From Nemertoderma westbladi (lineage: Eukaryota; Animalia; Xenacoelomorpha): a stretch of DNA of 42,779 nt. Under the pieces are notes generated by a model that saw only the letters and a list, made by a program, of their open reading frames with translations, made no database searches and was not told the DNA's origin. The first letter of the stretch is position 1. The number at the start of each line of letters is the position of its first letter. The position numbers were made by a program, and so were the translations under genes. Location: NCBI GenBank assembly GCA_032718475.1, contig JAUCBJ010003056.1:1-42779 (forward strand), written 5' to 3'. This document shows, piece by piece, positions 4,052 through 42,779 of this stretch.

Positions 4052-4459
4052 TTACCACTGTAGTAGTTAGAGAAAGGTAAATTATATTACGAGATATATT
4101 GATATATTCGCTCTACTTTGTACACCACCGTTTCGTGTTTCTCTTGTAATTTGTACCGATATTTCACAAGCATTCCCATTAAATATTGAAACTTAATCTA
4201 TACTGTACGTAACTAATTTTTAGAAATCACCTCATTCTGGGTCACCATCACCACTTTTCCATCTTGAGATGTCACCCTTACCATTTTTGTGAGAGTTATT
4301 ATGGTTTCGAGTCGCCTGTGCCACAAATCAACTCGCTCTGGAATACGATAGCTGTTGGATGTGTTCGAGGGAGCAGATTCAATTGAAGGTGTTTCCGAAT
4401 AACCTGCCGTGCCACTCTGTGGATGTGTGAAGTGCCACAATATTATCATACCATATCAT

Positions 4460-9300: not shown

Positions 9301-12300
9301 AAGTTTGTAATTCATAAAGTGAAAAACATTTCTTAAGTTGAAAAATAATTCATAAAGTGAAAAATAATTTCTAAGTTGAAAAATAATTCCTAAAGAGAAA
9401 ATAAATTACGTAAGTTATTACTACAAACAATTGAAAATGACTAACCTATAAACAAATAATTATTTATTATTATGGGGAAAAAAGTGGATGCATTTTTTTC
9501 ACTATTCTCAAGGCATTTTATTTATCGAGCGTCAGCAAGGTTAATAAAGGGTCGAGAGAATATTGGAAAAATAATTTTCTACGTTTTTTTCCCATGTAAT
9601 ACGTAATTTTATTCTTAAATTGGTACTTTTTTGTTGCTTAATTCTTTAATAAAACATAGCGATATACTAAAGTACAGTAGTGTTACAAAATAAATTGAAC
9701 TGCAGTATTTTACTATATTGCTTCCATAGTTACTGCGATTCTAAATTATTGTACTCTTCAACTCCTGATGCTTCCTACTCAATGTTAAATAATTTAGTGT
9801 TCTCGAATATTTATTATGTAACTAGAGAGCCGCTTAGCAACATAAACCAATATTGGATATTGAGAAAGCAGACACTAAAGTTGCAATAACTTTTAAGTGC
9901 GTGAATAGATTTTGATCATGTTACGTGCAAACCTTTTCTACTTCCAATAAAATTTCCGAAATTCCACCAAAAGTATCTGTATTCTTAAATTGTTACATTT
10001 TCTCTCGAATATAACCTAAAATCGGTAGAAAAATTTGTAATTTTTTCCAAAGTAACCCATATATATGATTGCATGGATTAAACTTTTTTTCCCGGTGAAA
10101 AAAAGTAAAATGGTAAAAAAAAAAAAAATAAAATGGTATTAAAATAGCTGCTTAATAAATACGTTTTAGAACAAATGATATTCTAGTTCTCACGTACACT
10201 AACCTCGACTGACTGGTGAACCCTTGTAGCTGGCGTACACTAACCTCGACTGGCCGGTGAACCCTTGTAGCTGGCGTACACTAACCTCGACTGACTGGTG
10301 AACCCTTGTAGCTAGCGTACACTAACCTCGACTGGCCGGTGAACCCTTGTAGCTGGCGTACACTAACCTCGACTGACTGGTGAACCCTTGTAGCTAGCGT
10401 ACACTAACCTCGACTGACTGGTGAACCCTTGTAGCTAGCGTACACTAACATCGACTGACTGGTGAACCCTTGTAGCTAGCGTACACTAACCTCGACTGAC
10501 TGGTGAACCCTTGTAGCTAGCGTACACTAACCTCGACTGACTGGTGAACCCTTGTAGCTAGCGTACACTAACCTCGACTGACTGGTGAACCCTTGTAGCT
10601 AGCGTACACTAACCTCTACTGACTGGTGAACCCTTAGCTAGCGTACACTAACCTCGACTGACTGGTGAACCCTTGTAGCTAGCGTACACTAACCTCGACT
10701 GACTGGTGAACCCTTGTAGCTGGCGTACACTAACCTCGACTGACTGGTGAACCCTTGTAGCTAGCGTACACTAACCTCGACTGACTGGTGAACCCTTGTA
10801 GCTAGCGTACACTAACCTCGACTGACTGGTGAACCCTTGTAGCTGGCGTACACTAACCTCGACTGACTGGTGAACCCTTGTAGCTAGCGTACACTAACTG
10901 ACTGGTGAACCCTTGTAGCTAGCGTACACTAACCTCGACTGACTGGTGAACCCTTGTAGCTAGCTTACACTAACCTCGACTGACTGGTGAACCCTTGTAG
11001 CTAGCGTACACTAACCTCGACTGACTGGTGAACCCTTGTAGCTAGCGTACACTAACCTCGACTGACTGGTGAACCCTTGTAGCTGGCGTACACTAACCTC
11101 GACTGACTGGTGAACCCTTGTAGCTAGCGTACACTAACTGACTGGTGAACCCTTGTAGCTAGCGCACACTAACCTCGACTGACTGGTGAACCCTTGTAGC
11201 TAGCGTACACTAACCTCGACTGACCGGTGAACCCTTGTAGCTAGCGTACACTAACCTCGACTGACTGGTGAACCCTTGTAGCTAGCGTACACTAACCTCG
11301 ACTGACTGGTGAACCCTTGTAGCTAGCGTACACTAACTTCGACTGACTGGTGAACCCTTGTAGCTAGCGTACACTAACCTCGACTGACTGGTGAACCCTT
11401 GTAGCTAGCGTACACTAACCTCGACTGACTGGTGAACCCTTGTAGCTAGCGTACACTAACTGACTGGTGAACCCTTGTAGCTAGCGCACACTAACCTCGA
11501 CTGACTGGTGAACCCTTGTAGCTGGCGCACACTAACCTCGACTGGCTGGTGAACCCTTGTAGCTAGCATACACTAACCTCGACTGACTGGTGAACCCTTG
11601 TAGCTAGCGTACACTAACCTCGACTGACTGGTGAACCCTTGTAGCTAGCGCACACTAACCTCGACTGACTGGTGAACCCTTGTAGCTAGCGTACACTAAC
11701 CTCGACTGACTGGTGAACCCTTGTAGCTAGCGTACACTAACCTCGACTGGCCGGTGAACCCTTGTAGCTAGCGTACACTAACCTCGACTGACCGGTGAAC
11801 CCTTGTAGCTAGCGTACACTAACCTCGACTGACCGGTGAACCCTTGTAGCTAGCGTACACTAACTGACTGGTGAACCCTTGTAGCTAGCGTACACTAACC
11901 TCGACTGAACGGTGAACCCTTGTAGCTAGCGTACACTAACTGACTGGTGAACCCTTGTAGCTAGCGTACACTAACCTCGACTGGCCGGTGAACCCTTGTA
12001 GCTAGCGTACACTAACCTCGACTGGCCGGTGAACCCTTGTAGCTAGCGTACACTAACCTCGACTGACTGGTGAACCCTTGTAGCCTCGTACACTAACCTC
12101 GACTGACTGGTGAACCCTTGTAGCTAGCGTACACTAACCTCGACTGACTGGTGAACCCTTGTAGCTAGCGTTCACTAACCTCGACTGAACGGTGAACCCT
12201 TGTAGCTAGCGTACACTAACCTCGACTGGCCGGTGAACCCTTGTAGCTAGCGTACACTAACCTCGACTGAACGGTGAACCCTTGTAGCTAGCGTACACTA

Positions 12301-15300
12301 ACTGACTGGTGAACCCTTGTAGCTAGCGTACACTAACTGACTGGTGAACCCTTGTAGCTAGCGTACACTAACCTCGACTGGCCGGTGAACCCTTGTAGCT
12401 AGCGTACACTAACCTCGACTGGCCGGTGAACCCTTGTAGCTGGCGTACACTAACCTCGACTGACTGGTGAACCCTTGTAGCTAGCGTACACTAACCTCGA
12501 CGGTGAACCCTTGTAGCCTCGTACACTAACCTCGACTGACTGGTGAACCCTTGTAGCTAGCGTACACTAACCTCGACTGACTGGTGAACCCTTGTAGCTA
12601 GCGTACACTAACCTCGACGGTGAACCCTTGTAGCCTCGTACACTAACCTCGACTGACTGGTGAACCCTTGTAGCTAGCGTACACTAACCTCGACTGGCCG
12701 GTGAACCCTTGTAGCTAGCGTACACTAACCTCGACTGAACGGTGAACCCTTGTAGCTAGCGTACACTAACTGACTGGTGAACCCTTGTAGCTAGCGTACA
12801 CTAACCTCGACTGGCCGGTGAACCCTTGTAGCTAGCGTACACTAACCTCGACTGGCCGGTGAACCCTTGTAGCTAGCGTACACTAACCTCGACTGACCGG
12901 TGAACCCTTGTAGCTAGCGTACACTAACCTCGACTGACCGGTGAACCCTTGTAGCTAGCGTACACTAACCTCGACTGACTGGTGAACCTTTGTAGCTAGC
13001 GTACACTAACCTCGACTGACCGGTGAACCCTTGTAGCTAGCGTACACTAACCTCGACTGACTGGTGAACCCTTGTAGCTAGCGTACACTAACCTCGACTG
13101 ACTGGTGAACCCTTGTAGCTGGCGTACACTAACCTCGACGGTGAACCCTTGTAGCCTCGTACACTAACCTCGACTGGCCGGTGAACCCTTGTAGCTAGCG
13201 TACACTAACCTCGACTGGCCGGTGAACCCTTGTAGCTAGCGTACACTAACCTCGACTGACTGGTGAACCTTTGTAGCTAGCGTACACTAACCTCGACTGA
13301 CTGGTGAACCCTTGTAGCTAGCGTACACTAACCTCGACTGACTGGTGAGCCCTTGTAGCTAGCGTACATTAACCTCGACTGACTGGTGAACCCTTGTAGC
13401 TAGCGTACACTAACCTCGACTGACTGGTGAACCCTTGTAGCTAGCGTACACTAACTGACTGGTGAACCCTTGTAGCTAGCGTACACTAACCTCGACTGGC
13501 CGGTGAACCCTTGTAGCTAGCGTACACTAACCTCGACTGACTGGTGAACCCTTGTAGCTGGCGTACACTAACCTCGACTGACTGGTGAACCCTTGTAGCT
13601 AGCGTACACTAACCTCGACTGACTGGTGAACCCTTGTAGCTGGCGTACACTAACCTCGACTGACTGGTGAACCCTTGTAGCTAGCGTACACTAACCTCGA
13701 CTGGCCGGTGAACCCTTGTAGCTAGCGTACACTAACCTCGACTGACTGGTGAACCCTTGTAGCTGGCGTACACTAACCTCGACTGACTGGTGAACCCTTG
13801 TAGCTGGCGTACACTAACCTCGACTGGCCGGTGAACCCTTGTAGCTAGCGTACACTAACCTCGACTGACTGGTGAACCCTTGTAGCTGGCGTACACTAAC
13901 CTCGACTGACTGGTGAACCCTTGTAGCTAGCGTACACTAACCTCGACTGACTGGTGAACCCTTAGCTAGCGTACACTAACCTCGACTGACTGGTGAACCC
14001 TTGTAGCTAGCGTACACTAACCTCGACTGGCCGGTGAACCCTTGTAGCTGGCGTACACTAACCTCGACTGACTGGTGAACCCTTGTAGCTAGCGTACACT
14101 AACCTCGACTGACTGGTGAACCCTTGTAGCTAGCGTACACTAACCTCGACTGACTGGTGAACCCTTGTAGCTGGCGTACACTAACCTCGACTGACTGGTG
14201 AACCCTTGTAGCTAGCGTACACTAACCTCGACTGACTGGTGAGCCCTTGTAGCTAGCGTACATTAACCTCGACTGACTGGTGAACCCTTGTAGCTAGCGT
14301 ACACTAACCTCGACTGACTGGTGAACCCTTGTAGCTAGCGTACACTAACCTCGACTGACTGGTGAACCCTTGTAGCTAGCGTACACTAACCTCGACTGAC
14401 TGGTGAACCCTTGTAGCTAGCGTACACTAACCTCGACTGACTGGTGAACCCTTGTAGCTGGCGTACACTAACCTCGACTGACTGGTGAACCCTTGTAGCT
14501 AGCGTACACTAACCTCGACTGACTGGTGAACCCTTGTAGCTGGCGTACACTAACCTCGACTGACTGGTGAACCCTTGTAGCTAGCGTACACTAACCTCGA
14601 CTGGCCGGTGAACCCTTGTAGCTAGCGTACACTAACCTCGACTGACTGGTGAACCCTTGTAGCTGGCGTACACTAACCTCGACTGACTGGTGAACCCTTG
14701 TAGCTGGCGTACACTAACCTCGACTGGCCGGTGAACCCTTGTAGCTAGCGTACACTAACCTCGACTGACTGGTGAACCCTTGTAGCTGGCGTACACTAAC
14801 CTCGACTGACTGGTGAACCCTTGTAGCTAGCGTACACTAACCTCGACTGACTGGTGAACCCTTGTAGCTAGCGTACACTAACCTCGACTGGCCGGTGAAC
14901 CCTTGTAGCTAGCGTACACTAACCTCGACTGGCCGGTGAACCCTTGTAGCTGGCGTACACTAACCTCGACTGACTGGTGAACCCTTGTAGCTAGCGTACA
15001 CTAACCTCGACTGACTGGTGAACCCTTGTAGCTAGCGTACACTAACCTCGACTGACTGGTGAACCCTTGTAGCTGGCGTACACTAACCTCGACTGACTGG
15101 TGAACCCTTGTAGCTAGCGTACACTAACCTCGACTGACTGGTGAACCCTTGTAGCTAGCGTACACTAACCTCGACTGACTGGTGAACCCTTGTAGCTAGC
15201 GTACACTAACCTCGACTGACTGGTGAACCCTTGTAGCTAGCGTACACTAACCTCGACTGACTGGTGAACCCTTGTAGCTAGCGTACACTAACCTCGACTG

Positions 15301-18300
15301 ACTGGTGAACCCTTGTAGCTAGCGTACACTAACCTCGACTGACTGGTGAACCCTTGTAGCTAGCGTACACTAACCTCGACTGACTGGTGAACCCTTGTAG
15401 CTAGCGTACACTAACCTCGACTTACTGGTGAACCCTTGTAGCTAGCGTACACTAACCTCGACTGGCCGGTGAACCCTTGTAGCTAGCGTACACTAACCTC
15501 GACTGACTGGTGAACCCTTGTAGCTAACGTACACGAACCTCGACTGACTGGTGAACCTTTGTAGCTAGCGTACACTAACCTCGACTGACTGGTGAACCCT
15601 TGTAGCTAACGTACACTAACCTCGACTGACTGGTGAACCCTTGTAGCTAGCGTACGGTCCGTCTCTTATTGCCAGTTCGCAACTCGCCTCCAAAGCCGCG
15701 TAGTAGATCGTTTCGAATATCTGTTTGTTGAGGATCTGGGCCTTCTCGCTGTCGAATGGGAGTCGCAGCAGTATGAATGCGTCGGCCAGTCCCTGGACCC
15801 CGATTCCGATGGGCCGATGCGAGAGGTTTGACTTCCGTGCAGTCTCGACGGGGTAGTAGTTGACGTCTATGATCTGGTTGAGGTTTCTGGTTACCACCTG
15901 CACGGAAATTAGTTCAGTTTGAGTTCCGATATACTTGATGTTCCAGTTCTTAGATTATATTATATTAAATGAACTCAGGTTTATAAAATTATTGTTAAAC
16001 GACATATTTTCAAATTAAGTTTAAAACCATAGTTAGTTTAAAATAGGCAAATTTAATTTTAATAAAAACACACAATCCAGAAATATACAGAACACATTTT
16101 AACTATAGGAGTGTTCCGGCTCCGGTCGGATTTCATTTTTTGGCCGGATTTTCATTTCAACGAATTGTACAATTTTTACAACAAAATTTACAATTAAAGT
16201 AAATTTTCAAAAAAACATCAAATAAATTTTCCTTTAAATTCAAACAAATTAAAACATAAGCAAATACAATGGAATACAAGACAATTAATTGACAAGAGCT
16301 AACATTTTATGACTATCTATATGCTGAGCTGACTGACTACTTTTTGCCAAGAATATTTGTATTTGGTTGTGCTCAGCCTCACTAACACTTATAATATAAT
16401 AGTACACTACTTGTGCCCATATACTAATTAGAAACTGGTCAATAATTATTATATTGTCCCAGGGCGCAAGCCTTGATGTTAGGCCTATTAGGTATTGTTA
16501 TAAATTGAGATTGACCAGTTTATATATTCGACAGGCAATTTAGAAATAGTAGAAATTTAGTTATCTATCTATCTCTCTAGTTAGAGTTTTAACGCATGAT
16601 TTCTGTACCCAAACACTAAAATAGTTAATCGCAATGTAAGTATGAAAAATGATGTCAATAATATTAAGTAATAAATATCTTGTGATGTTACAATTAATAA
16701 GGATAAAGTAAATTCGCCTCCCTGCCAAATTGACTCACCTTTGTAACAGCTTTGAGTTTTATAAAATCAAACTTCCCTCCCGCTGTGACGTACATCGGCA
16801 AGGCCAATGAGGCGAGGTTACACACAGCTGTCTCAGTGGCACTGGAGTACTCCACAATCTCAGTGCAGAGGTTACTGCACTTAATGGTTCCAAGGTTCTG
16901 TTGGTTAGATTTTCTGTTACAAGCGTCTTTGTACAGCATATAGGGGGTTCCTAAATAACAGATGTTATAAATTTATACAGTTTTAGCCTCCCCCGTTTCT
17001 ATCTGGCCCTCCACTATCCCCAACCCACTCACCTGTCTCTATCTGGGCCTCCACTACCCCCAACCCACTCACCTGTCTCTATCTGGGCCTCCACTATCCC
17101 CAACCCACTCACCTGTCTCTATCTGGGCCTCCACTATCCCCAACCCACTCACCTGTCTCTATCTGGCCCTCCACTATCCCCAACCCACTCACCTGTCTCT
17201 ATCTGGGCCTCCACTATCCCCAACCCACTCACCTGTCTCTATCTGGCCCTCCACTATCCCCAACCCACTCACCTGTCTCTATCTGGCCCTCCACTATCCC
17301 CAACCCACTCACCTGTCTCTATCTGGGCCTCCACTATCCCCAACCCACTCACCTGTCTCTATCTGGGCCTCCACTATCCCCAACCCACTCACCTGTCTCT
17401 ATCTGGGCCTCCACTATCCCCAACCCACTCACCTGTCTCTATCTGGGCCTCCACTACCCCCAACCCACTCACCAGTCTCTATCTGGGCCTCCACTACCCC
17501 CAACCCACTCACCTGTCTCTATCTGGACCTCCACTATCCCCAACCCACTCACCTGTCTCTATCTGGGCCTCCACTATCCCCAACCCACTCACCTGTCTCT
17601 ATCTGGCCCTCCACTATCCCCAACCCACTCACCTGTCTCTATCTGGGCCTCCACTATCCCCAACCCACTCACCTGTCTCTATCTGGCCCTCCACTATCCC
17701 CAACCCACTCACCTGTCTCTATCTGGCCCTCCACTATCCCCAACCCACTCACCTGTCTCTATCTGGGCCTCCACTATCCCCAACCCACTCACCTGTCTCT
17801 ATCTGGGCCTCCACTATCCCCAACCCACTCACCTGTCTCTATCTGGGCCTCCACTACCCCCAACCCACTCACCAGTCTCTATCTGGGCCTCCACTACCCC
17901 CAACCCACTCACCTGTCTCTATCTGGACCTCCACTATCCCCAACCCACTCACCTGTCTCTATCTGGGCCTCCACTACCCCCAACCCACTCACCAGTCTCT
18001 ATCTGGACCTCCACTACCCCCAACCCACTCACCAGTCTCTATCTGGGCCTCCACTACCCCCAACCCACTCACCTGTCTCTATCTGGGCCTCCACTATCCC
18101 CAACCCACTCACCTGTCTCTATCTGGGCCTCCACTATCCCCAACCCACTCACCTGTCTCTATCTGGCCATCCACTATCCCCAACCCACTCACCTGTCTCT
18201 ATCTGGGCCTCCACTACCCCCAACCCACTCACCTGTCTCTATCTGGACCTCCACTATCCCCAACCCACTCACCTGTCTCTATCTGGGCCTCCACTACCCC

Positions 18301-21300
18301 CAACCCACTCACCAGTCTCTATCTGGACCTCCACTACCCCCAACCCACTCACCAGTCTCTATCTGGGCCTCCACTACCCCCAACCCACTCACCTGTCTCT
18401 ATCTGGGCCTCCACTATCCCCAACCCACTCACCTGTCTCTATCTGGGCCTCCACTATCCCCAACCCACTCACCTGTCTCTATCTGGCCCTCCACTATCCC
18501 CAACCCACTCACCTGTCTCTATCTGGGCCTCCACTATCCCCAACCCACACACCTGTCTCTATCTGGGCCTCCACTATCCCCAACCCACTCACCTGTCTCT
18601 ATCTGGCCCTCCACTATCCCCAACCCACTCACCTGTCTCTATCTGGGCCTCCACTATCCCCAACCCACTCACCTGTCTCTATCTGGGCCTCCACTATCCC
18701 CAACTCACTCACCTGTCTCTATCTGGGCCTCCACTATCCCCAACCCACTCACCTGTCTCTATCTGGGCCTCCACTACCCCCAACCCACTCACCTGTCTCT
18801 ATCTGGGCCTCCACTATCCCCAACCCACTCACCTGTCTCTATCTGGGCCTCCACTATCCCCAACCCACTCACCTGTCTCTATCTGGCCCTCCACTATCCC
18901 CAACCCACTCACCTGTCTCTACCTGGGCCTCCACTATCCCCAACCCACTCACCTGTCTCTATCTGGCCCTCCACTATCCCCAACCCACTCACCTGTCTCT
19001 ATCTGGCCCTCCACTATCCCCAACCCACTCACCTGTCTCTATCTGGGCCTCCACTATCCCCAACCCACTCACCTGTCTCTATCTGGGCCTCCACTATCCC
19101 CAACCCACTCACCTGTCTCTATCTGGGCCTCCACTATCCCCAACCCACTCACCTGTCTCTATCTGGGCCTCCACTACCCCCAACCCACTCACCAGTCTCT
19201 ATCTGGGCCTCCACTATCCCCCAACCCACTCACCTGTCTCTATCTGGACCTCCACTATCCCCAACCCACTCACCTGTCTCTATCTGGGCCTCCACTATCC
19301 CCAACCCACTCACCTGTCTCTATCTGGCCCTCCACTATCCCCAACCCACTCACCTGTCTCTATCTGGGCCTCCACTATCCCCAACCCACTCACCTGTCTC
19401 TATCTGGCCCTCCACTATCCCCAACCCACTCACCTGTCTCTATCTGGGCCTCCACTATCCCCAACCCACTCACCTGTCTCTATCTGGGCCTCCACTATCC
19501 CCAACCCACTCACCTGTCTCTATCTGGCCCTCCACTATCCCCAACCCACTCACCTGTCTCTATCTGGGCCTCCACTATCCCTAACCCACTCACCTGTCTC
19601 TATCTGGCCCTCCACTATCCCCAACCCACTCACCTGTCTCTATCTGGGCCTCCACTATCCCCAACCCACTCACCTGTCTCTATCTGGCCCTCCACTATCC
19701 CCAACCCACTCACCTGTCTCTATCTGGCCCTCCACTATCCCCAACCCACTCACCTGTCTCTATCTGGGCCTCCACTATCCCCAACCCACTCACCTGTCTC
19801 TATCTGGGCCTCCACTATCCCCAACCCACTCACCTGTCTCTATCTGGGCCTCCACTACCCCCAACCCACTCACCAGTCTCTATCTGGGCCTCCACTACCC
19901 CCAACCCACTCACCTGTCTCTATCTGGACCTCCACTATCCCCAACCCACTCACCTGTCTCTATCTGGGCCTCCACTATCCCCAACCCACTCACCTGTCTC
20001 TATCTGGCCCTCCACTATCCCCAACCCACTCACCTGTCTCTATCTGGGCCTCCACTATCCCCAACCCACACACCTGTCTCTATCTGGGCCTCCACTATCC
20101 CCAACCCACTCACCTGTCTCTATCTGGCCCTCCACTATCCCCAACCCACTCACCTGTCTCTATCTGGGCCTCCACTATCCCCAACCCACTCACCTGTCTC
20201 TATCTGGGCCTCCACTATCCCCAACCCACTCACCTGTCTCTATCTGGGCCTCCACTATCCCTAACCCACTCACCTGTCTCTATCTGGGCCTCCACTACCC
20301 CCAACCCACTCACCTGTCTCTATCTGGGCCTCCACTATCCCCAACCCACACACCTGTCTCTATCTGGGCCTCCACTATCCCCAACCCACTCACCTGTCTC
20401 TATCTGGCCCTCCACTATCCCCAACCCACACACCTGTCTCTATCTGGGCCTCCACTATCCCCAACCCACTCACCTGTCTCTATCTGGCCCTCCACTATCC
20501 CCAACCCACTCACCTGTCTCTATCTGGGCCTCCACTATCCCCAACCCACTCACCTGTCTCTATCTGGGCCTCCACTAATCCCAACCCACTCACCTGTCTC
20601 TATCTGGGCCTCCACTATCCCCAACCCACTCACCTGTCTCTATCTGGGCCTCCACTATCCCCAACCCACTCACCTGTCTCTATCTGGGCCTCCAGTAACC
20701 CCAACCCACTCACCTGTCTCTATCTGGCCCTCCAGTATCCCCAACCCACTCACGTGTCTCTATCTGGGCCTCCACTATCCCCAAACCACTCACCTGTCTA
20801 TATCTGGGCCTCCACTATCCCCAACCCACTCACCTGTCTCTATCTGGGCCTCCACTATCCCCAACCCACTCGCCTGTCTCTATCAGGGCCTCCACTAGCC
20901 CCAACCCACTCACCTGTCTCTATCTGGCCCTCCACTATCCCCAACCCACTCACCTGTCTCTATCTGGGCCTCCACTATCCCCATCTCACTCACCTGTCTC
21001 TATCGGGGCCTCCACTATCCCCAACCCACTCACCTGTCTCTATCTGGGCCTCCACTATCCCCAACCCACTCACCTGTCTCTCCACTATCCCCAACCCACT
21101 CATCTGTCTCTATCTGGGTCTCCACTATCCCCAACCCACTCACCTGTCTCTATCTGGGCCTCCACTATCCCCAACCCACTCACCTGTCTCTATCTGGGCC
21201 TCCACTACCCCCAACCCACTCACCTGTCTCTATCTGGCCCTCCACTATCCCCAACCCACTCACCTGTCTCTATCTGGGCCTCCACTATCCCCAACCCACT

Positions 21301-22220
21301 CACCTGTCTCTATCTGGGCCTACACTATCCCCAACCCACTCACCTGTCTCTATCTGGGCCTCCACTATCCCCAGCCCACTCACCTGTCTCTATCTGGGCC
21401 TCCACTATCCCCAACCCACTCACCTGTCTCTATCTGGGCCTCCACTAACCCCAACCAACTCACCTGTCTCTATCTGGGCCTCCACTACCCCCAATCCACT
21501 CACCTGTCTCTATCTGGGCCTTCACTATCCCCAACCCACTCACCCGTCTCAATCTGGGCCTCCACTATCCCCAACCCACTCACCTGTCTCTATCTGGGCC
21601 TCCACTATCCCCAACCCACTCACCTGTCTCTATCTGGGCCTCCACTATCGCGTACCACAAGGTCTGCGCTTTCATTCTCTTCCTGAACCTTCCCTCATTC
21701 TCGTATTTCTCGTAGAGTTTCTCGAACTCATCTCCCCAGGTGTCGCACAGACCAGGAGACTCGTGGGGGCACATGAGACACCAATCGCCGTTCTCTTGAA
21801 CTCGCTTCATAAACAGGTCCGGGATCCATAGAGCGTAGAACAAATCCCGGGCACGTGACTCCTCCTTACCTACATGGATGGAACCTACGTATATTGGATG
21901 GAAACAAAGGCCTAGCACACTTGAGTGAACAACGTCTATATTTGCACTGAAAGTGGATTTCTATATTTGAAAAAACAACAAATCATTTTACCGGTAAGTA
22001 GATGTGAGTTGCAATAACAGATTAGCGAGTAGTTCATAGAGAAGTCATACTAAACCTGTGTTCTTTCTGCAGTCGAGGAAATCAATGATATCCGCATGCC
22101 AAGGTTCGAGGTATATGGCGAAGGCTCCTGGTCTCTTATTGCCACCCTGGTCCACATAGCGGGCCGTGTTATTAAAAACTCGTAGCATTGGGAGCAATCC
22201 ATTACTTACACCATTGGTAC
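6098..22220 (-). CDS. RRM1: Ribonucleoside-diphosphate reductase large subunit, 3' part; joined exons 22220-22056, 21869-21624, 16950-16739, 15897-15621, 9167-8824, 7471-7303, 6363-6098 (5' exons outside the window)
   Basis: Exons join in frame through GT-AG introns. Class Ia R1 motifs are present: loop 2 [11 protein letters not shown], active-site SNLCTEI and [18 protein letters not shown] tyrosine pair and C-terminal CMMCSG. Confidence 0.97.
6903..6996. repeat. Small imperfect inverted repeat (hairpin or mini-MITE) in the last RRM1 intron
   Basis: tcgtcgcttaagaacctaaaggccctaa pairs with ttaggtcctttaggtactttagtgacga; arms ~33 bp, spacer ~25 bp. Confidence 0.6.
7303..7471 (-). CDS. RRM1: RRM1 exon ([11 protein letters not shown]...[10 protein letters not shown])
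   Basis: Acceptor tttcctttag|TTATAC and donor ACAG|gtgagt, 169 nt. Contains IDQSQSLN. Confidence 0.96.
7522..8709. mobile_element. Non-autonomous hAT-type DNA transposon in an RRM1 intron
   Basis: 16 bp TIRs tagggatgtgccggat / atccggcacaccccta (1 mismatch). Exact 8 bp TSD ctatttat at 7514-7521 and 8710-8717. Subterminal ccgg-rich repeats at both ends and no transposase ORF. An 8 bp TSD with TAGGG ends fits hAT. Confidence 0.9.
8824..9167 (-). CDS. RRM1: RRM1 exon (GILQHDMW...[19 protein letters not shown]...PDDIKQ)
   Basis: Acceptor tttcactttag|GGATTC and donor CAG|gtaaca, 344 nt. Confidence 0.96.
9163..9410. repeat. ~19 bp repeat spanning the splice acceptor (aatccctaaagtgaaaaat), with decayed copies further into the intron
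   Basis: Exact copies at 9163-9181 and 9182-9200. Degenerate copies such as aattcataaagtgaaaaat and aattcctaaagagaaaat lie at ~9290-9410. Confidence 0.75.
10193..15655 (-). repeat. Minisatellite 1: 41 bp unit made of exon end plus donor, ~130-135 copies
   Basis: Transcript-strand unit GCTAGCTACAAGGGTTCACCAGTCAGTCGAG|gttagtgtac. The exonic part encodes [11 protein letters not shown], and the first copy is the real exon end (donor at 15620). Confidence 0.98.
15621..15897 (-). CDS. RRM1: RRM1 exon ([11 protein letters not shown]...[12 protein letters not shown]...YKGSPVSRG)
   Basis: Acceptor tttccgtgcag|GTGGTA and donor CGAG|gttagt, 277 nt. Confidence 0.96.
16106..16558. mobile_element. Truncated, diverged, inverted copy of the hAT-type element at 7522-8709
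   Basis: Begins with the TIR-like taggagtgttccgg. Blocks such as aaacataagcaaatacaatggaatacaa, ccaagaatatttgtatttggttg.gctcagcctcactaacactt and attcgacaggcaatttagaaa are reverse complements of ~8200-8620. Confidence 0.85.
16739..16950 (-). CDS. RRM1: RRM1 active-site exon (GTPYMLYKD...SNLCTEI...VCNLAS...AVTK)
   Basis: Acceptor ttatttag|GAACCC and donor AAG|gtgagt, 212 nt. Catalytic Asn, Cys and Glu and the redox Cys are present. Confidence 0.97.
16998..21649 (-). repeat. Minisatellite 2: 40 bp unit made of exon end plus donor, ~115 copies
   Basis: Transcript-strand unit GATAGTGGAGGCCCAGATAGAGACAG|gtgagtgggttggg. The exonic part encodes IVEAQIETG, and the first copy is the real exon end (donor at 21623). 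Confidence 0.98.
21624..21869 (-). CDS. RRM1: RRM1 exon ([21 protein letters not shown]...[12 protein letters not shown])
   Basis: Acceptor ccatgtag|GTAAGG and donor ACAG|gtgagt, 246 nt, phase 1 at both ends. Confidence 0.95.
22056..22220 (-). CDS. RRM1: RRM1 exon missed by the ORF track ([56 protein letters not shown])
   Basis: Manual translation of the - strand. Acceptor aatattacag|GTACC and donor ACAG|gtttag, 165 nt. Contains specificity loop 2. Confidence 0.96.
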
Positions 22221-22227
22221 CTGTAAT

Positions 22228-31200: not shown

Positions 31201-34200
31201 TGTGTACATTAACGAACCTGCTATGTAGGAACCAGTAGCCCGTATATTGTGTACATTAACGAACCTGCTATGTAGGACCCAGTAGCCCGTATATTGTGTA
31301 CATTAACGAACCTGCTATGTAGGAACCAGTAGCCCGTATATTGTGTACATTAACGAACCCGTTATATATAGGAACCAGTAGCCCGTATATTGTGTACATT
31401 AACGAACCTGCTATGTAGGAACCAGTAGCCCGTATATTGTGTACATTAACGAACCTGCTATGTAGGACCCAGTAGCCCGTATATTGTGTACATTAACGAA
31501 CCCGCTATGTAGGACCCAGTAGCCCGTATATTGTGTACATTAACGAACCTGCTATGTAGGAACCAGTAGCCCGTATATTGTGTACATTAACGAACCTGCT
31601 ATGTAGGACCCAGTAGCCCGTATATTGTGTACATTAACGAACCTGCTATGTAGGACCCAGTAGCCCGTATATTGTGTACATTAACGAACCCGCTATGTAG
31701 GACCCAGTAGCCCGTATATTGTGTACATTAACGAACCTGCTATGTAGGAACCAGTAGCCCGTATATTGTGTACATTAACGAACCTGCTATGTAGGAACCA
31801 GTAGCCCGTATATTGTGTACATTAACGAACCCGCTATGTAGGAACCAGTAGCCCGTATATTGTGTACATTAACGAACCCGTTATATATAGGAACCAGTAG
31901 CCCGTATATTGTGTACATTAACGAACCCGTTATATATAGGAACCAGTAGCCCGTATATTGTGTACATTAACGAACCTATGTAGGTGTAGGAACCAGTAGC
32001 CCGTATATTGTGTACATTAACGAACCTGCTATGTAGGTGTAGGACCCAGTAGCCCGTATATTGTGTACATTAACGAACCTGCTATGTAGGAACCAGTAGC
32101 CCGTATATTGTGTACATTAACGAACCTGCTATGTAGGAACCAGTAGCCCGTATATTGTGTACATTAACGAACCCGTTATATATAGGAACCAGTAGCCCGT
32201 ATATTGTGTACATTAACGAACCCGTTATATATAGGAACCAGTAGCCCGTATATTGTGTACATTAACAAACCCGCTATGTAGGACCCAGTAGCCCGTATAT
32301 TGTGTACATTAACAAACCCGCTATGTAGGACCCAGTAGCCCGTATATTGTGTACATTAACGAACCTGCTATGTAGGACCCAGTAGCCCGTATATTGTGTA
32401 CATTAACGAACCTGCTATGTAGGACCCAGTAGCCCGTATATTGTGTACATTAACGAACCCGTTATATATAGGAACCAGTAGCCCGTATATTGTGTACATT
32501 AACGAACCTGCTATGTAGGAACCAGTAGCCCGTATATTGTGTACATTAACGAACCCGTTATATATAGGAACCAGTAGCCCGTATATTGTGTACATTAACA
32601 AACCCGCTATATAGGAACCAGTAGCCCGTATATTGTGTACATTAACGAACCTGCTATGTAGGACCCATTAGCCCGTATATTGTGTACATTAACGAACCTG
32701 CTATGTAGGACCCATTAGCCCGTATATTGTGTACATTAACGAACCTGCTATGTAGGAACCAGTAGCCCGTATATTGTGTACATTAACGAACCTGCTATGT
32801 AGGAACCAGTAGCCCGTATATTGTGTACATTAACGAACCTGCTATGTAGGAACCAGTAGCCCGTATATTGTGTACATTAACGAACCTGCTATGTAGGAAC
32901 CAGTAGCCCGTATATTGTGTACATTAACGAACCTGCTATGTAGGACCCAGTAGCCCGTATATTGTGTACATTAACGAACCTGCTATTTAGGAACCAGTAG
33001 CCCGTATATTGTGTACATTAACGAACCCGTTATATATAGGAACCAGTAGCCCGTATATTGTGTACATTAACGAACCCGCTATGTAGGAACCAGTAGCCCG
33101 TATATTGTGTACATTAACGAACCTGCTATGTAGGAACCAGTAGCCCGTATATTGTGTACATTAACGAACCTGCTATGTAGGACCCAGTAGCCCGTATATT
33201 GTGTACATTAACGAACCCGCTATGTAGGAACCAGTAGCCCGTATATTGTGTACATTAACGAACCCGTTATATATAGGAACCAGTAGCCCGTATATTGTGT
33301 ACATTAACGAACCCGCTATGTAGGAACCAGTAGCCCGTATATTGTGTACATTAACGAACCCGTTATATATAGGAACCAGTAGCCCGTATATTGTGTACAT
33401 TAACGAACCTGCTATGTAGGAACCAGTAGCCCGTATATTGTGTACATTAACGAACCTGCTATGTAGGAACCAGTAGCCCGTATATTGTGTACATTAACGA
33501 ACCTGCTATGTAGGAACCAGTAGCCCGTATATTGTGTACATTAACGAACCTGCTATTTAGGAACCAGTAGCCCGTATATTGTGTACATTAACAAACCCGT
33601 TATATATAGGAACCAGTAGCCCGTATATTGTGTACATTAACGAACCCGCTATGTAGGAACCAGTAGCCCGTATATTGTGTACATTAACGAACCCGTTATA
33701 TATAGGAACCAGTAGCCCGTATATTGTATACATTAACGAACCCGTTATATATAGGAACCAGTAGCCCGTATATTGTGTACATTAACGAACCTGCTATGTA
33801 GGAACCAGTAGCCCGTATATTGTGTACATTAACGAACCCGCTATGTAGGAACCAGTAGCCCGTATATTGTGTACATTAACGAACCTGCTATGTAGGAACC
33901 AGTAGCCCGTATATTGTGTACATTAACGAACCCGCTATGTAGGAACCAGTAGCCCGTATATTGTGTACATTAACAAACCCGTTATATATAGGAACCAGTA
34001 GCCCGTATATTGTGTACATTAACGAACCTGCTATGTAGGAACCAGTAGCCCGTATATTGTGTACATTAACAAACCCGTTATATATAGGAACCAGTAGCCC
34101 GTATATTGTGTACATTAACGAACCTGCTATGTAGGAACCAGTAGCCCGTATATTGTGTACATTAACGAACCCGCTATGTAGGAACCAGTAGCCCGTATAT

Positions 34201-37200
34201 TGTGTACATTAACGAACCCGCTATGTAGGAACCAGTAGCCCGTATATTGTGTACATTAACGAACCTGCTATGTAGGAACCAGTAGCCCGTATATTGTGTA
34301 CATTAACAAACCCGTTATATATAGGAACCAGTAGCCCGTATATTGTGTACATTAACGAACCTGCTATGTAGGAACCAGTAGCCCGTATATTGTGTACATT
34401 AACGAACCCGCTATATAGGACCCAGTAGCCCGTATATTGTGTACATTAACGAACCCGTTATATATAGGAACCAGTAGCCCGTATATTGTGTACATTAACG
34501 AACCCGCTATGTAGGAACCAGTAGCCCGTATATTGTGTACATTAACGAACCCGTTATATATAGGAACCAGTAGCCCGTATATTGTGTACATTAACGAACC
34601 TGCTATTTAGGAACCAGTAGCCCGTATATTGTGTACATTAACAAACCCGTTATATATAGGAACCAGTAGCCCGTATATTGTGTACATTAACGAACCTGCT
34701 ATGTAGGAACCAGTAGCCCGTATATTGTGTACATTAACGAACCCGCTATATAGGACCCAGTAGCCCGTATATTGTGTACATTAACGAACCCGTTATATAT
34801 AGGAACCAGTAGCCCGTATATTGTGTACATTAACGAACCCGCTATGTAGGAACCAGTAGCCCGTATATTGTGTACATTAACGAACCCGTTATATATAGGA
34901 ACCAGTAGCCCGTATATTGTGTACATTAACAAACCCGTTATATATAGGAACCAGTAGCCCGTATATTGTGTACATTAACGAACCTGCTATGTAGGAACCA
35001 GTAGCCCGTATATTGTGTACATTAACGAACCTGCTATGTAGGAACCAGTAGCCCGTATATTGTGTACATTAACGAACCCGCTATGTAGGAACCAGTAGCC
35101 CGTATATTGTGTACATTAACGAACCCGCTATGTAGGAACCAGTAGCCCGTATATTGTGTACATTAACGAACCTGCTATGTAGGAACCAGTAGCCCGTATA
35201 TTGTGTACATTAACAAACCCGTTATATATAGGAACCAGTAGCCCGTATATTGTGTACATTAACGAACCTGCTATGTAGGAACCAGTAGCCCGTATATTGT
35301 GTACATTAACGAACCCGCTATATAGGACCCAGTAGCCCGTATATTGTGTACATTAACGAACCCGTTATATATAGGAACCAGTAGCCCGTATATTGTGTAC
35401 ATTAACGAACCCGCTATGTAGGAACCAGTAGCCCGTATATTGTGTACATTAACAAACCCGTTATATATAGGAACCAGTAGCCCGTATATTGTGTACATTA
35501 ACGAACCTGCTATGTAGGAACCAGTAGCCCGTATATTGTGTACATTAACGAACCCGCTATATAGGACCCAGTAGCCCGTATATTGTGTACATTAACGAAC
35601 CCGCTATGTAGGAACCAGTAGCCCGTATATTGTGTACATTAACAAACCCGTTATATATAGGAACCAGTAGCCCGTATATTGTGTACATTAACGAACCTGC
35701 TATGTAGGAACCAGTAGCCCGTATATTGTGTACATTAACGAACCCGCTATGTAGGAACCAGTAGCCCGTATATTGTGTACATTAACGAACCCGCTATATA
35801 GGACCCAGTAGCCCGTATATTGTGTACATTAACGAACCCGTTATATATAGGAACCAGTAGCCCGTATATTGTGTACATTAACGAACCCGCTATATATAGG
35901 AACCAGTAGCCCGTATATTGTGTACATTAACGAACCTGCTATATAGGAACCAGTAGCCCGTATATTGTGTACATTAACGAACCTGCTATGTAGGAACCAG
36001 TAGCCCGTATATTGTGTACATTAATGAACCCGCTATATAGGACCCAGTAGCCCGTATATTGTGTACATTAACGAACCCGTTATATATAGGAACCAGTAGC
36101 CCGTATATTGTGTACATTAACGAACCCGCTATGTAGGAACCAGTAGCCCGTATATTGTGTACATTAACGAACCCGTTATATATAGGAACCAGTAGCCCGT
36201 ATATTGTGTACATTAACGAACCTGCTATGTAGGAACCAGTAGCCCGTATATTGTGTACATTAACGAACCTGCTATGTAGGAACCAGTAGCCCGTATATTG
36301 TGTACATTAACGAACCTGCTATGTAGGACCCAGTAGCCCGTATATTGTGTACATTAACAAACCCGCTATGTAGGAACCAGTAGCCCGTATATTGTGTACA
36401 TTAACGAACCCGCTATGTAGGAACCAGTAGCCCGTATATTGTGTACATTAACGAACCTGCTATGTAGGACCCAGTAGCCCGTATATTGTGTACATTAACG
36501 AACCTGCTATGTAGGAACCAGTAGCCCGTATATTGTGTACATTAACGAACCTGCTATGTAGGAACCAGTAGCCCGTATATTGTGTACATTAACGAACCTG
36601 CTATGTAGGAACCAGTAGCCCGTATATTGTGTACATTAACGAACCTGCTATGTAGGAACCAGTAGCCCGTATATTGTGTACATTAACGAACCTGCTATGT
36701 AGGAACCAGTAGCCCGTATATTGTGTACATTAACGAACCTGCTATGTAGGACCCAGTAGCCCGTATATTGTGTACATTAACGAACCTGCTATGTAGGAAC
36801 CAGTAGCCCGTATATTGTGTACATTAACGAACCTGCTATGTAGGAACCAGTAGCCCGTATATTGTGTACATTAACGAACCTGCTATGTAGGAACCAGTAG
36901 CCCGTATATTGTGTACATTAACGAACCTGCTATGTAGGAACCAGTAGCCCGTATATTGTGTACATTAACGAACCTGCTATGTAGGAACCAGTAGCCCGTA
37001 TATTGTGTACATTAACGAACCTGCTATGTAGGAACCAGTAGCCCGTATATTGTGTACATTAACGAACCTGCTATGTAGGAACCAGTAGCCCGTATATTGT
37101 GTACATTAACGAACCTGCTATGTAGGAACCAGTAGCCCGTATATTGTGTACATTAACGAACCTGCTATGTAGGAACCAGTAGCCCGTATATTGTGTACAT

Positions 37201-40200
37201 TAACGAACCTGCTATGTAGGAACCAGTAGCCCGTATATTGTGTACATTAACGAACCTGCTATGTAGGAACCAGTAGCCCGTATATTGTGTACATTAACGA
37301 ACCTGCTATGTAGGAACCAGTAGCCCGTATATTGTGTACATTAACGAACCTGCTATGTAGGAACCAGTAGCCCGTATATTGTGTACATTAACGAACCTGC
37401 TATGTAGGAACCAGTAGCCCGTATATTGTGTACATTAACGAACCTGCTATGTAGGAACCAGTAGCCCGTATATTGTGTACATTAACGAACCTGCTATGTA
37501 GGAACCAGTAGCCCGTATATTGTGTACATTAACGAACCTGCTATGTAGGAACCAGTAGCCCGTATATTGTGTACATTAACGAACCCGCTATGTAGGAACC
37601 AGTAGCCCGTATATTGTGTACATTAACGAACCTGCTATGTAGGAACCAGTAGCCCGTATATTGTGTACATTAACGAACCCGCTATGTAGGAACCAGTAGC
37701 CCGTATATTGTGTACATTAACGAACCTGCTATGTAGGAACCAGTAGCCCGTATATTGTGTACATTAACGAACCTGCTATGTAGGAACCAGTAGCCCGTAT
37801 ATTGTGTACATTAACGAACCTGCTATGTAGGAACCAGTAGCCCGTATATTGTGTACATTAACGAACCTGCTATGTAGGAACCAGTAGCCCGTATATTGTG
37901 TACATTAACGAACCTGCTATGTAGGAACCAGTAGCCCGTATATTGTGTACATTAACGAACCTGCTATGTAGGAACCAGTAGCCCGTATATTGTGTACATT
38001 AACGAACCTGCTATGTAGGAACCAGTAGCCCGTATATTGTGTACATTAACGAACCTGCTATGTAGGAACCAGTAGCCCGTATATTGTGTACATTAACGAA
38101 CCTGCTATGTAGGAACCAGTAGCCCGTATATTGTGTACATTAACGAACCTGCTATGTAGGAACCAGTAGCCCGTATATTGTGTACATTAACGAACCTGCT
38201 ATGTAGGAACCAGTAGCCCGTATATTGTGTACATTAACGAACCTGCTATGTAGGAACCAGTAGCCCGTATATTGTGTACATTAACGAACCTGCTATGTAG
38301 GAACCAGTAGCCCGTATATTGTGTACATTAACGAACCTGCTATGTAGGAACCAGTAGCCCGTATATTGTGTACATTAACGAACCTGCTATGTAGGAACCA
38401 GTAGCCCGTATATTGTGTACATTAACGAACCTGCTATGTAGGAACCAGTAGCCCGTATATTGTGTACATTAACGAACCTGCTATGTAGGAACCAGTAGCC
38501 CGTATATTGTGTACATTAACGAACCTGCTATGTAGGAACCAGTAGCCCGTATATTGTGTACATTAACGAACCTGCTATGTAGGAACCAGTAGCCCGTATA
38601 TTGTGTACATTAACGAACCCGCTATGTAGGAACCAGTAGCCCGTATATTGTGTACATTAACGAACCCTGCTATGTAGGAACCAGTAGCCCGTATATTGTG
38701 TACATTAACGAACCCGCTATGTAGGAACCAGTAGCCCGTATATTGTGTACATTAACGAACCTGCTATGTAGGAACCAGTAGCCCGTATATTGTGTACATT
38801 AACGAACCTGCTATGTAGGAACCAGTAGCCCGTATATTGTGTACATTAACGAACCTGCTATGTAGGAACCAGTAGCCCGTATATTGTGTACATTAACGAA
38901 CCTGCTATGTAGGAACCAGTAGCCCGTATATTGTGTACATTAACGAACCCGCTATGTAGGAACCAGTAGCCCGTATATTGTGTACATTAACGAACCTGCT
39001 ATGTAGGAACCAGTAGCCCGTATATTGTGTACATTAACGAACCTGCTATGTAGGAACCAGTAGCCCGTATATTGTGTACATTAACGAACCTGCTATGTAG
39101 GAACCAGTAGCCCGTATATTGTGTACATTAACGAACCTGCTATGTAGGAACCAGTAGCCCGTATATTGTGTACATTAACGAACCTGCTATGTAGGAACCA
39201 GTAGCCCGTATATTGTGTACATTAACGAACCTGCTATGTAGGAACCAGTAGCCCGTATATTGTGTACATTAACGAACCCGTGCTATGTAGGAACCAGTAG
39301 CCCGTATATTGTGTACATTAACGAACCTGCTATGTAGGAACCAGTAGCCCGTATATTGTGTACATTAACGAACCCGCTATGTAGGAACCAGTAGCCCGTA
39401 TATTGTGTACATTAACGAACCTGCTATGTAGGAACCAGTAGCCCGTATATTGTGTACATTAACGAACCTGCTATGTAGGAACCAGTAGCCCGTATATTGT
39501 GTACATTAACGAACCTGCTATGTAGGAACCAGTAGCCCGTATATTGTGTACATTAACGAACCTGCTATGTAGGAACCAGTAGCCCGTATATTGTGTACAT
39601 TAACGAACCTGCTATGTAGGAACCAGTAGCCCGTATATTGTGTACATTAACGAACCTGCTATGTAGGAACCAGTAGCCCGTATATTGTGTACATTAACGA
39701 ACCTGCTATGTAGGAACCAGTAGCCCGTATATTGTGTACATTAACGAACCTGCTATGTAGGAACCAGTAGCCCGTATATTGTGTACATTAACGAACCTGC
39801 TATGTAGGAACCAGTAGCCCGTATATTGTGTACATTAACGAACCTGCTATGTAGGAACCAGTAGCCCGTATATTGTGTACATTAACGAACCTGCTATGTA
39901 GGAACCAGTAGCCCGTATATTGTGTACATTAACGAACCTGCTATGTAGGAACCAGTAGCCCGTATATTGTGTACATTAACGAACCTGCTATGTAGGAACC
40001 AGTAGCCCGTATATTGTGTACATTAACGAACCTGCTATGTAGGAACCAGTAGCCCGTATATTGTGTACATTAACGAACCTGCTATGTAGGAACCAGTAGC
40101 CCGTATATTGTGTACATTAACGAACCTGCTATGTAGGAACCAGTAGCCCGTATATTGTGTACATTAACGAACCTGCTATGTAGGAACCAGTAGCCCGTAT

Positions 40201-42779
40201 ATTGTGTACATTAACGAACCTGCTATGTAGGAACCAGTAGCCCGTATATTGTGTACATTAACGAACCTGCTATGTAGGAACCAGTAGCCCGTATATTGTG
40301 TACATTAACGAACCCGCTATGTAGGAACCAGTAGCCCGTATATTGTGTACATTAACGAACCTGCTATGTAGGAACCAGTAGCCCGTATATTGTGTACATT
40401 AACGAACCCTGCTATGTAGGAACCAGTAGCCCGTATATTGTGTACATTAACGAACCTGCTATGTAGGAACCAGTAGCCCGTATATTGTGTACATTAACGA
40501 ACCTGCTATGTAGGAACCAGTAGCCCGTATATTGTGTACATTAACGAACCTGCTATGTAGGAACCAGTAGCCCGTATATTGTGTACATTAACGAACCTGC
40601 TATGTAGGAACCAGTAGCCCGTATATTGTGTACATTAACGAACCCGTTCTATGTAGGAACCAGTAGCCCGTATATTGTGTACATTAACGAACCTGCTATG
40701 TAGGAACCAGTAGCCCGTATATTGTGTACATTAACGAACCTGCTATGTAGGAACCAGTAGCCCGTATATTGTGTACATTAACGAACCTGCTATGTAGGAA
40801 CCAGTAGCCCGTATATTGTGTACATTAACGAACCTGCTATGTAGGAACCAGTAGCCCGTATATTGTGTACATTAACGAACCTGCTATGTAGGAACCAGTA
40901 GCCCGTATATTGTGTACATTAACGAACCTGCTATGTAGGAACCAGTAGCCCGTATATTGTGTACATTAACGAACCTGCTATGTAGGAACCAGTAGCCCGT
41001 ATATTGTGTACATTAACGAACCTGCTATGTAGGAACCAGTAGCCCGTATATTGTGTACATTAACGAACCCGCTATGTAGGAACCAGTAGCCCGTATATTG
41101 TGTACATTAACGAACCTGCTATGTAGGAACCAGTAGCCCGTATATTGTGTACATTAACGAACCTGCTATGTAGGAACCAGTAGCCCGTATATTGTGTACA
41201 TTAACGAACCTGCTATGTAGGAACCAGTAGCCCGTATATTGTGTACATTAACGAACCTGCTATGTAGGAACCAGTAGCCCGTATATTGTGTACATTAACG
41301 AACCTGCTATGTAGGAACCAGTAGCCCGTATATTGTGTACATTAACGAACCTGCTATGTAGGAACCAGTAGCCCGTATATTGTGTACATTAACGAACCTG
41401 CTATGTAGGAACCAGTAGCCCGTATATTGTGTACATTAACGAACCTGCTATGTAGGAACCAGTAGCCCGTATATTGTGTACATTAACGAACCTGCTATGT
41501 AGGAACCAGTAGCCCGTATATTGTGTACATTAACGAACCTGCTATGTAGGAACCAGTAGCCCGTATATTGTGTACATTAACGAACCTGCTATGTAGGAAC
41601 CAGTAGCCCGTATATTGTGTACATTAACGAACCTGCTATGTAGGAACCAGTAGCCCGTATATTGTGTACATTAACGAACCTGCTATGTAGGAACCAGTAG
41701 CCCGTATATTGTGTACATTAACGAACCTGCTATGTAGGAACCAGTAGCCCGTATATTGTGTACATTAACGAACCTGCTATGTAGGAACCAGTAGCCCGTA
41801 TATTGTGTACATTAACGAACCTGCTATGTAGGAACCAGTAGCCCGTATATTGTGTACATTAACGAACCTGCTATGTAGGAACCAGTAGCCCGTATATTGT
41901 GTACATTAACGAACCTGCTATGTAGGAACCAGTAGCCCGTATATTGTGTACATTAACGAACCTGCTATGTAGGAACCAGTAGCCCGTATATTGTGTACAT
42001 TAACGAACCTGCTATGTAGGAACCAGTAGCCCGTATATTGTGTACATTAACGAACCTGCTATGTAGGAACCAGTAGCCCGTATATTGTGTACATTAACGA
42101 ACCTGCTATGTAGGAACCAGTAGCCCGTATATTGTGTACATTAACGAACCTGCTATGTAGGAACCAGTAGCCCGTATATTGTGTACATTAACGAACCTGC
42201 TATGTAGGAACCAGTAGCCCGTATATTGTGTACATTAACGAACCTGCTATGTAGGAACCAGTAGCCCGTATATTGTGTACATTAACGAACCTGCTATGTA
42301 GGAACCAGTAGCCCGTATATTGTGTACATTAACGAACCTGCTATGTAGGAACCAGTAGCCCGTATATTGTGTACATTAACGAACCTGCTATGTAGGAACC
42401 AGTAGCCCGTATATTGTGTACATTAACGAACCTGCTATGTAGGAACCAGTAGCCCGTATATTGTGTACATTAACGAACCTGCTATGTAGGAACCAGTAGC
42501 CCGTATATTGTGTACATTAACGAACCTGCTATGTAGGAACCAGTAGCCCGTATATTGTGTACATTAACGAACCTGCTATGTAGGAACCAGTAGCCCGTAT
42601 ATTGTGTACATTAACGAACCTGCTATGTAGGAACCAGTAGCCCGTATATTGTGTACATTAACGAACCTGCTATGTAGGAACCAGTAGCCCGTATATTGTG
42701 TACATTAACGAACCTGCTATGTAGGAACCAGTAGCCCGTATATTGTGTACATTAACGAACCTGCTATGTAGGAACCAGT
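22228..42779 (-). repeat. Minisatellite 3: 47 bp unit made of exon end plus donor, more than 430 copies, running off the window
   Basis: Transcript-strand unit AATGTACACAATATACGGGCTACTGGTTCCTACATAGCAG|gttcgtt. It translates to (N)[13 protein letters not shown], the conserved RRM1 segment (IRATGSYIAG) that directly precedes GTNG in the next exon. Confidence 0.97.

Follow-up and report, generated by a model that had tools for sequence, protein, structure and literature searches.

The RRM1 locus

A 42,779-nt stretch of the genome of Nemertoderma westbladi (Xenacoelomorpha; assembly GCA_032718475.1, contig JAUCBJ010003056.1), here called the window, carries on its minus strand the last seven exons of the animal gene RRM1, whose product is an enzyme making DNA building blocks. 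Seven introns of the gene are visible. Three of them are occupied by large head-to-tail tandem arrays, in each of which the unit comprises the end of an exon together with the adjoining splice donor, and the three arrays make up 30,645 of the 42,779 bases of the window.

The RRM1 gene in the window is intact. Its seven exons join into 559 codons followed by a stop codon, with no internal stops, and six of the seven match the ribonucleotide reductase barrel domain (Pfam PF02867). In the order of transcription, the first is an exon of 165 nt (22056-22220, TNGVSNG...RKNT), placed by the joined reading frame and a Pfam match. It is followed by one of 246 nt (21624-21869) whose final 26 nt are copy 1 of array 2 and whose true donor lies at 21624/21623, as given by the reading frame and a spliced contig from run X4, one of the public runs described below. 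The third exon (212 nt, 16739-16950) is placed by reading frame, Pfam match and run contigs. The fourth (277 nt, 15621-15897) ends in 35 nt that are copy 1 of array 1, with its true donor at 15621/15620 according to the reading frame and spliced contigs from runs X3 and X4. Reading frame and Pfam matches place the next two exons, of 344 nt (8824-9167) and 169 nt (7303-7471), and the reading frame places the last coding exon (266 nt, 6098-6363), which holds the C-terminal cysteine pair and the stop codon.

The exons have a GC content of 44-55%, and the introns, with arrays collapsed, of 27-38%. All seven donors follow an exon ending in AG, and five of the seven introns interrupt a Gly codon in phase 1. 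A first-pass annotation, made from the sequence alone, had singled out a phase-1 Gly codon split at AG|GT as common to the three arrays; this is true of all three but is not distinctive in this gene. Among the 120 matches listed, the best identity is 78%, for one RRM1 exon. A quick tree of 44 of the 120 RRM1 proteins (at least 680 residues, named or hand-picked, lancelets being absent) did not place the window sequence, which stood on a branch of 0.61.

Intron positions were compared with 80 related loci, 23 of which are listed with a break or a non-contiguous start. The positions in RRM1 (6098-22220, minus strand) look lineage-specific in this set, few members of which are intron-rich. One of the six later positions recurs in locus L005, another has breaks nearby in two loci (L063 and L069), and the other four coincide with no break in any of the 80.

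Three donor-spanning arrays

The arrays were called with Tandem Repeats Finder, with coordinates referring to the whole window; all three lie, like the gene, on the minus strand. Array 1 (10193-15655) consists of a 41-bp unit present 135.1 times with 94% matches, and on the sense strand each unit is made of 35 nt of exon and 6 nt of intron. It has a 5-nt microhomology on both flanks and is followed by about 1 kb of unique intron. Array 2 (16998-21649) has a 40-bp unit present 116.5 times (116 copies in the unit split) with 96% matches, formed of 26 nt of exon and 14 nt of intron. Its sense strand is G-rich, and about 42 nt of unique intron come after it. Array 3 was called as a 47-bp unit present 434.3 times with 96% matches (22250-42779); it continues past the end of the window, so that its copy number is a minimum. 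Within the window it occupies 22228-42779 with at least 433 copies, the unit being 37 nt of exon plus 10 nt or, read otherwise, 43 plus 4. It fills its intron to within 7 nt of the acceptor. These 7 nt (22221-22227), which end in the CAG of the acceptor, are the sole non-array stretch of that intron, and the last intact donor lies 17 nt from the acceptor.

The call and the unit split thus confirm the first-pass description of three exon-end plus donor arrays of 41, 40 and 47 bp in three of the seven visible introns. They also bear out its reading that the source exon is the first copy in arrays 1 and 2, where copy 1 is the true exon end and is identical to the array consensus. The source exon of array 3 lies beyond the window end and is deduced, as before, from a motif present in 80 of 120 homologous proteins. 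With the arrays collapsed, the three introns measure 1036 nt (array 1), approximately 56 nt (array 2) and 17 nt (array 3), so that almost nothing of the intron lies outside the repeat at arrays 2 and 3.

As had been noticed, the three units are mutually unrelated (pairwise p of 0.27, 0.15 and 0.93), and none of their exact 16-mers recurs in the window outside the array of origin. An independent origin of the three arrays is supported.

The donor 9-mer is intact in 116 of 130 units of array 1 (a split that still contains four merged units), in 100 of 116 of array 2 and in 324 of 433 of array 3. As most of these 9-mers are intact, the decoy donors are evidently not being purged. The arrays contain 26-35 distinct unit variants in a structured order. 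At the edges, where units might escape homogenisation, array 2 closes with a partial, degenerate copy and array 3 with a variant of 53 nt; no clear gradient is apparent in array 1. In array 2 this terminal copy (16990-17020, minus strand) has lost its GT donor.

A coding role for the array copies is ruled out by the stops found within two copies. Folding of the units into hairpins was no better than that of shuffled sequences, and a search of metagenome contigs for the array-3 unit returned no matches. Three short arrays of period 20 or more were found among the 80 related loci.

Read support and splice-site choice

Four of six listed public runs (X1 to X4), none of them recorded as RNA, were compared over positions 15615-17030. 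Runs X1 and X2, which come from two studies, cover the introns and thus represent DNA, and their alleles differ from that of the window. At the end of array 1 the summed contig depth, 22.8 in the unique sequence of X1 and 15.1 in that of X2, climbs to 992 and 1051; at the end of array 2 it climbs from 23 to 263 and from 15 to 1176, respectively. The ratios are unequal between the two runs, which, like the recurrent variant blocks described below, hints at array lengths that differ between alleles or cells. Being based on summed contig depth, they give no copy number, so that the array lengths quoted here are those of the assembly alone. Loose ends of X2 contigs run on into a further repeat unit, and in contigs of both X1 and X2 the end of array 2 is continuous with its unique flank.

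Arrays 1 and 2 are therefore not assembly artefacts, a possibility that the first-pass annotation had kept in view; both are present in X1 and X2, on contig evidence that is silent on copy number. That the arrays, or most of their length, arose in assembly is most improbable. Such an origin could appeal to the lack of spanning long reads, to copy numbers taken from the assembly alone and to read support that covers arrays 1 and 2, but it would have to accommodate depth jumps at the same array ends in two DNA runs of different studies, tandem loose ends in X2, the flank junction of array 2 and the structured order of the unit variants.

Runs X3 and X4 skip an 841-nt intron exactly and have zero depth in unique intron sequence, and for these reasons they were treated as RNA. 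At array 1 the first donor is used: contigs of both runs join 15620 directly to the exon beginning at 9167. The acceptor of that junction itself lies in a short repeat that the first-pass annotation had not noticed (9163-9208, minus strand; Tandem Repeats Finder, and loose ends in X3 and X4), with a 19-bp unit present 2.4 times that consists of the pyrimidine tract, AG and 3-5 nt of exon. Here the last acceptor copy (9168/9167) is used in X3 and X4. At array 2 a contig of X4 passes from 16952 through one copy of the unit into unique exon sequence, which again places splicing at the first donor. The next intact donor of this array would make an intron of 82 nt, and the spliced contig of X4 ignores it. 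At arrays 1 and 2 and at the acceptor repeat, then, the outermost splice site is used and a normal mRNA results, although contigs lose rare variants and low-level use of later donors could escape them.

None of the unit lengths is divisible by 3, and in all three arrays an in-frame stop is reached within two copies. Splicing from a later donor would therefore shift the frame or run into a stop, and the resulting RNA would be non-productive and likely degraded.

At three exonic positions (15694, 15757 and 15829), runs X1, X2 and X4 carry single-base differences from the window that are absent from X3. X1 and X3 share a sample code, yet differ at these positions.

Origin of the arrays

We consider it probable that these are three independent minisatellites of the kind termed mirages (see below), each begun by a duplication spanning the donor, likely guided by microhomology, and likely grown by slippage and unequal exchange, with the first donor still in use at the two arrays checked. 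The seed would be a single short tandem duplication over the exon end and the donor, made via a microhomology of a few bases. At array 1 the same five bases stand at both ends, in exon and intron (chance 0.0056), and these form a microhomology scar. A comparable scar may exist at array 3, and we infer the same kind of seed for arrays 2 and 3.

The second step is survival. A duplicate that spans the donor leaves one exon whole, and all extra copies fall into the intron. The first-pass annotation had offered survival of such copies under a high general duplication rate as an alternative to targeting; by itself this is insufficient, since purely intronic duplicates survive too. Growth would then have proceeded at the DNA level by duplication of blocks, through slippage and unequal exchange. 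In array 1, seven variant units recur in a 10-unit block, against a maximum of three in 20 shuffles; the corresponding values are six against four for array 3 and five against four for array 2. The recurrence of variant patterns in multi-unit blocks therefore points to stepwise growth, and the arrays are likely neutral passengers.

The same patterns bear on RNA-templated or rolling-circle copying, which the first-pass annotation had listed as a candidate and in which a pre-mRNA fragment, or a junction fragment of an excised circle, would be inserted in many copies at once. The units do hold unspliced exon-intron junctions, and the 5'-most units of array 3 within the window hardly vary (0.02 differences per unit). 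However, each array continues its own source exon in register and occurs nowhere else in the window, the variants recur in blocks as expected of stepwise growth, and the ends of array 1 are accounted for by microhomology. With the 5-nt microhomology and the multi-unit blocks both fitting DNA-level duplication, copying through RNA is unneeded and we regard it as very unlikely.

Clustering at splice boundaries

The position of the arrays was compared with random placement in a model of 4427 nt of collapsed intron and 41-bp seeds. In this model a surviving seed spans a donor with p=0.058, and three of three do so with p=1.9e-4 (1.6e-3 for any boundary). When only seeds with a GC content of at least 0.42 are allowed, the values become 3.2e-3 for three donors of three and 2.2e-2 for any boundary. 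Clustering at splice boundaries within RRM1 is thus real in exceeding random placement, as the first-pass annotation had expected, though the test is post hoc and concerns a single gene in a window chosen for its arrays.

Base composition may contribute. The three amplified donors rank highest in GC of the seven (0.56, 0.51 and 0.44 against 0.41, 0.39, 0.39 and 0.29), an order with a chance of 1 in 35, again post hoc and with the array 3 value taken from its unit. Exon edges might then be favoured as GC-richer sequence that can be amplified without damage to the gene in otherwise AT-rich introns, a step that we put forward with little weight.

Remnants of boundary repeats were sought at 10 junctions, in the five collapsed introns longer than 60 nt. 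One clear case emerged, at acceptor 9167 (p=0.002), where the 19-bp acceptor repeat recurs inside the intron as about five degenerate copies (9308-9416, minus strand; score 34, p=0.002 against 500 shuffles). Elsewhere, a 9-nt duplication with an upstream AG precedes acceptor 21869 of a 186-nt intron (21870-21900, minus strand) and does not span the junction. Its p of 0.024 is uncorrected and not significant over 10 tests, and it is possibly an old two-copy acceptor duplication. The remaining intronic repeats of RRM1 are small.

The first-pass annotation had proposed a process that targets splice donors themselves, such as co-transcriptional R-loops or breaks. In this reading R-loops, nicks or staggered breaks would preferentially seed duplications of 40-47 bp at the 5' splice site. 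All three large arrays do lie on donors, at the low chance values given above, and their unit sizes are close. That clustering test, however, was made after the fact on one gene, and the preference for donors over acceptors, 3:0, has p=0.125 and becomes 3:1 once the acceptor repeat of RRM1 is counted; donor-specific targeting is not established. G-skew is the sequence mark expected of R-loops. On the sense strand it is 0.14 in array 1, 0.65 in array 2 and 0.00 in array 3, against 0.50 at an unamplified donor, so that a G-rich sense strand is not common to the arrays. In lancelets, mirages are described at both kinds of boundary in the available text of PMC3087553. The literature searched, which left most subscription papers outside its coverage, yielded no paper on targeting of this kind and none that tested donors against acceptors on a genome-wide scale. 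We consider a donor-directed process unlikely.

Several observations weigh against donor-spanning duplication followed by slippage, which we nevertheless prefer. Microhomology is read directly in one of the three arrays, and array 2 is unreadable in this respect; the block test for array 2 is marginal. Array 3 has no intron interior and an unusual phase, and would need an added deletion as well as an earlier intron gain or shift. Rare use of later donors could have been lost from the contigs. The GC filter explains part of the excess at boundaries but leaves the probability of three donors in three at 3.2e-3, while two GC-rich acceptors (0.54 and 0.56) have escaped amplification and the one acceptor that carries a repeat is AT-rich (0.37). 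Finally, the placement of every large array on the donor side and the narrow range of unit sizes (40-47 bp) are unpredicted by the model.

Array 3 as a possible intron birth

The peculiarities of array 3 raise the possibility, which we hold tentatively and which is compatible with the explanation preferred for arrays 1 and 2, that this array made its own intron (Rogers model). An exonic 47-nt segment containing CAG|GT would have been duplicated after the loss of an older phase-0 intron. Copy 1 would have supplied the donor and the last copy the acceptor, and the new phase-1 intron, 2 nt away from the older one, would then have grown past 20 kb.

The unit lends itself to such a reading, as when rotated it reads in frame over 43 nt (15 residues) with 4 nt remaining. 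The residues [VLI]N stand at that place in 33 of the 47 homologues with His at -2 (33 of the 80 with the motif), and the chance that intron bases would read [VLI]N is 0.015. Three of the final four nucleotides of the unit match the start of the downstream exon, and five of the 7 non-array nucleotides before the acceptor equal the end of the upstream exon, three of these being the CAG. Introns are found here in four of the 80 related loci (L005, L034, L040 and L041), all in phase 0 and 2 nt downstream, and a phase-1 intron at this site in none of the 80. The accessible parts of PMC3443670 and PMC4974935 document the mechanism itself and, in fission yeast, multi-copy cases of it.

On the other side, the AC of the exon at +3/+4 is kept in none of 433 copies, of which 416 have TC, 16 TT and one TA. 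The last copy is incomplete: the donor-side 10 nt of the final unit are followed by 7 nt instead of the 37-nt exon part, which would require a 30-nt deletion, and the acceptor accordingly does not derive from a complete last copy. The 6-nt match could be microhomology, comparable with the 5 nt at array 1. RRM1 has other unshared intron positions, four of them without a break in any related locus, so that a further new one can do without a special cause. At this site the majority of the 80 loci lack an intron, none of the 80 is a close relative, and the upstream exon and first donor of array 3 lie outside the window.

If array 3 did arise in this way, it would be structurally required, since its collapse leaves 17 nt. 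Core genes of this lineage would then be turning over introns through repeat amplification at proto-splice sites, and in RRM1 one could trace, in an animal, how tandem duplication creates an intron that a satellite then enlarges. Arrays 1 and 2 do not fit as self-made introns, because their units contain true intron sequence.

Other features of the window

A dispersed repeat occurs in two RRM1 introns (16113-16546 and 8209-8647) in opposite orientation, with 66% identity over 401 nt. It has very high depth in the DNA runs and is likely a high-copy non-autonomous element.

Outside RRM1, positions 600-1877 of the plus strand contain a single long open reading frame (ORF) of 425 residues, counted between stop codons. 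It is rich in His at the start and charged in the middle, and a hydrophobic stretch comes late in the sequence. A CD20/MS4A-like domain is matched weakly (Pfam PF04103, 28.6 bits where the cut-off is 27.9); no relatives were found among 4651 candidates, and atlas hits were below 0.9. Intergenic repeats comprise a 51-bp unit present 2.2 times and a 20-bp motif in tandem and inverted copies (2201-2313 and 4456-4741). Three poly-C runs of 18-22 nt (3569-3586, 3954-3975 and 4001-4022) lie near one another within partly inverted similar sequence.

Comparison with known systems

The first-pass annotation knew of no named class for such arrays, but one exists. Tandem repeats over exon-intron boundaries have been named mirages in lancelet Adh3, and the same papers, in the parts available, describe them in the globins BflGb6 and BflGb9, troponin C and PGBD5 (PMC3087553, PMC3902484). 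They are reported at both 5' and 3' boundaries, with splicing undisturbed and an origin described as unclear; the units in Adh3 measure 10-72 bp, and PGBD5 has two arrays. By their units of tens of bases and their repeated splice site, features read from the sequence and, at array 3, from a protein motif, the RRM1 arrays are classed as mirages, or splice-site-spanning minisatellites. As in RRM1, the lancelet units span the boundary and repeat the splice site, a gene may have more than one array, and splicing is normal. The lancelet arrays, however, have 2-7 copies in the cases given (3-6 in BflGb6, 2-7 in PGBD5), against 116 to more than 430 copies and 30.6 kb of array in RRM1.

Human minisatellites provide a second parallel. 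The accessible portion of PMC1557585 lists donor-spanning examples in F7 intron 7 (37 bp), CBS intron 13, IFI6 (6-16), lamin B2 (100 bp) and PDGF (81 bp), the lamin B2 repeat spanning most of one intron according to a reference title there, and it describes experiments on F7 in which the most upstream donor wins. In these F7-type variable number tandem repeats (VNTRs), as in RRM1, unit 1 spans the boundary, identical pseudo-donors follow and the most upstream donor is used. They differ in having, as given there, 5-25 copies and one array per gene, where RRM1 has 116 to more than 430 copies and three arrays. CBS and 6-16 are also stated to splice at the next two pseudo-sites, a use not seen in the RRM1 contigs, which miss rare forms.

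Microhomology-mediated tandem duplication is presented in the consulted text of PMC13167724 as a general seed of tandem repeats, mostly neutral and depleted from coding sequence. It shares with array 1 a short direct repeat at both unit ends (5 nt here); its main text treats such duplications as seeds, largely in microbes and humans, and leaves introns, exons and splicing unmentioned. Repeats at exon-intron boundaries can also form new introns in human duplicated genes, as stated in the part of PMC2812944 that was available. Intron gain by tandem duplication, as far as it is set out in the portions consulted of PMC3443670 and PMC4974935, resembles array 3 in its exonic unit with AG|GT and in an intron made nearly all of copies, from which array 3 departs by one base at donor +3 and by a last copy that is not whole.

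The kind of repeat is thus one already named, and what is new in RRM1 is its scale (116 to more than 430 copies against the 2-25 given in the cited sources) and probably also its host. Why mirages cluster at exon edges is left unexplained in those parts of the cited papers, and this genome looks well suited to a count of donor against acceptor arrays. Intact decoy donors number at least 540 in the gene (116 in array 1, 100 in array 2 and 324 in array 3), and yet assembled RNA shows the first one chosen at both arrays checked, which extends the rule that the most upstream donor wins from the 5-25 copies of human genes to more than 100. The unused 82-nt intron of array 2 allows first-come choice of splice sites to be tested against intron definition in a natural locus.

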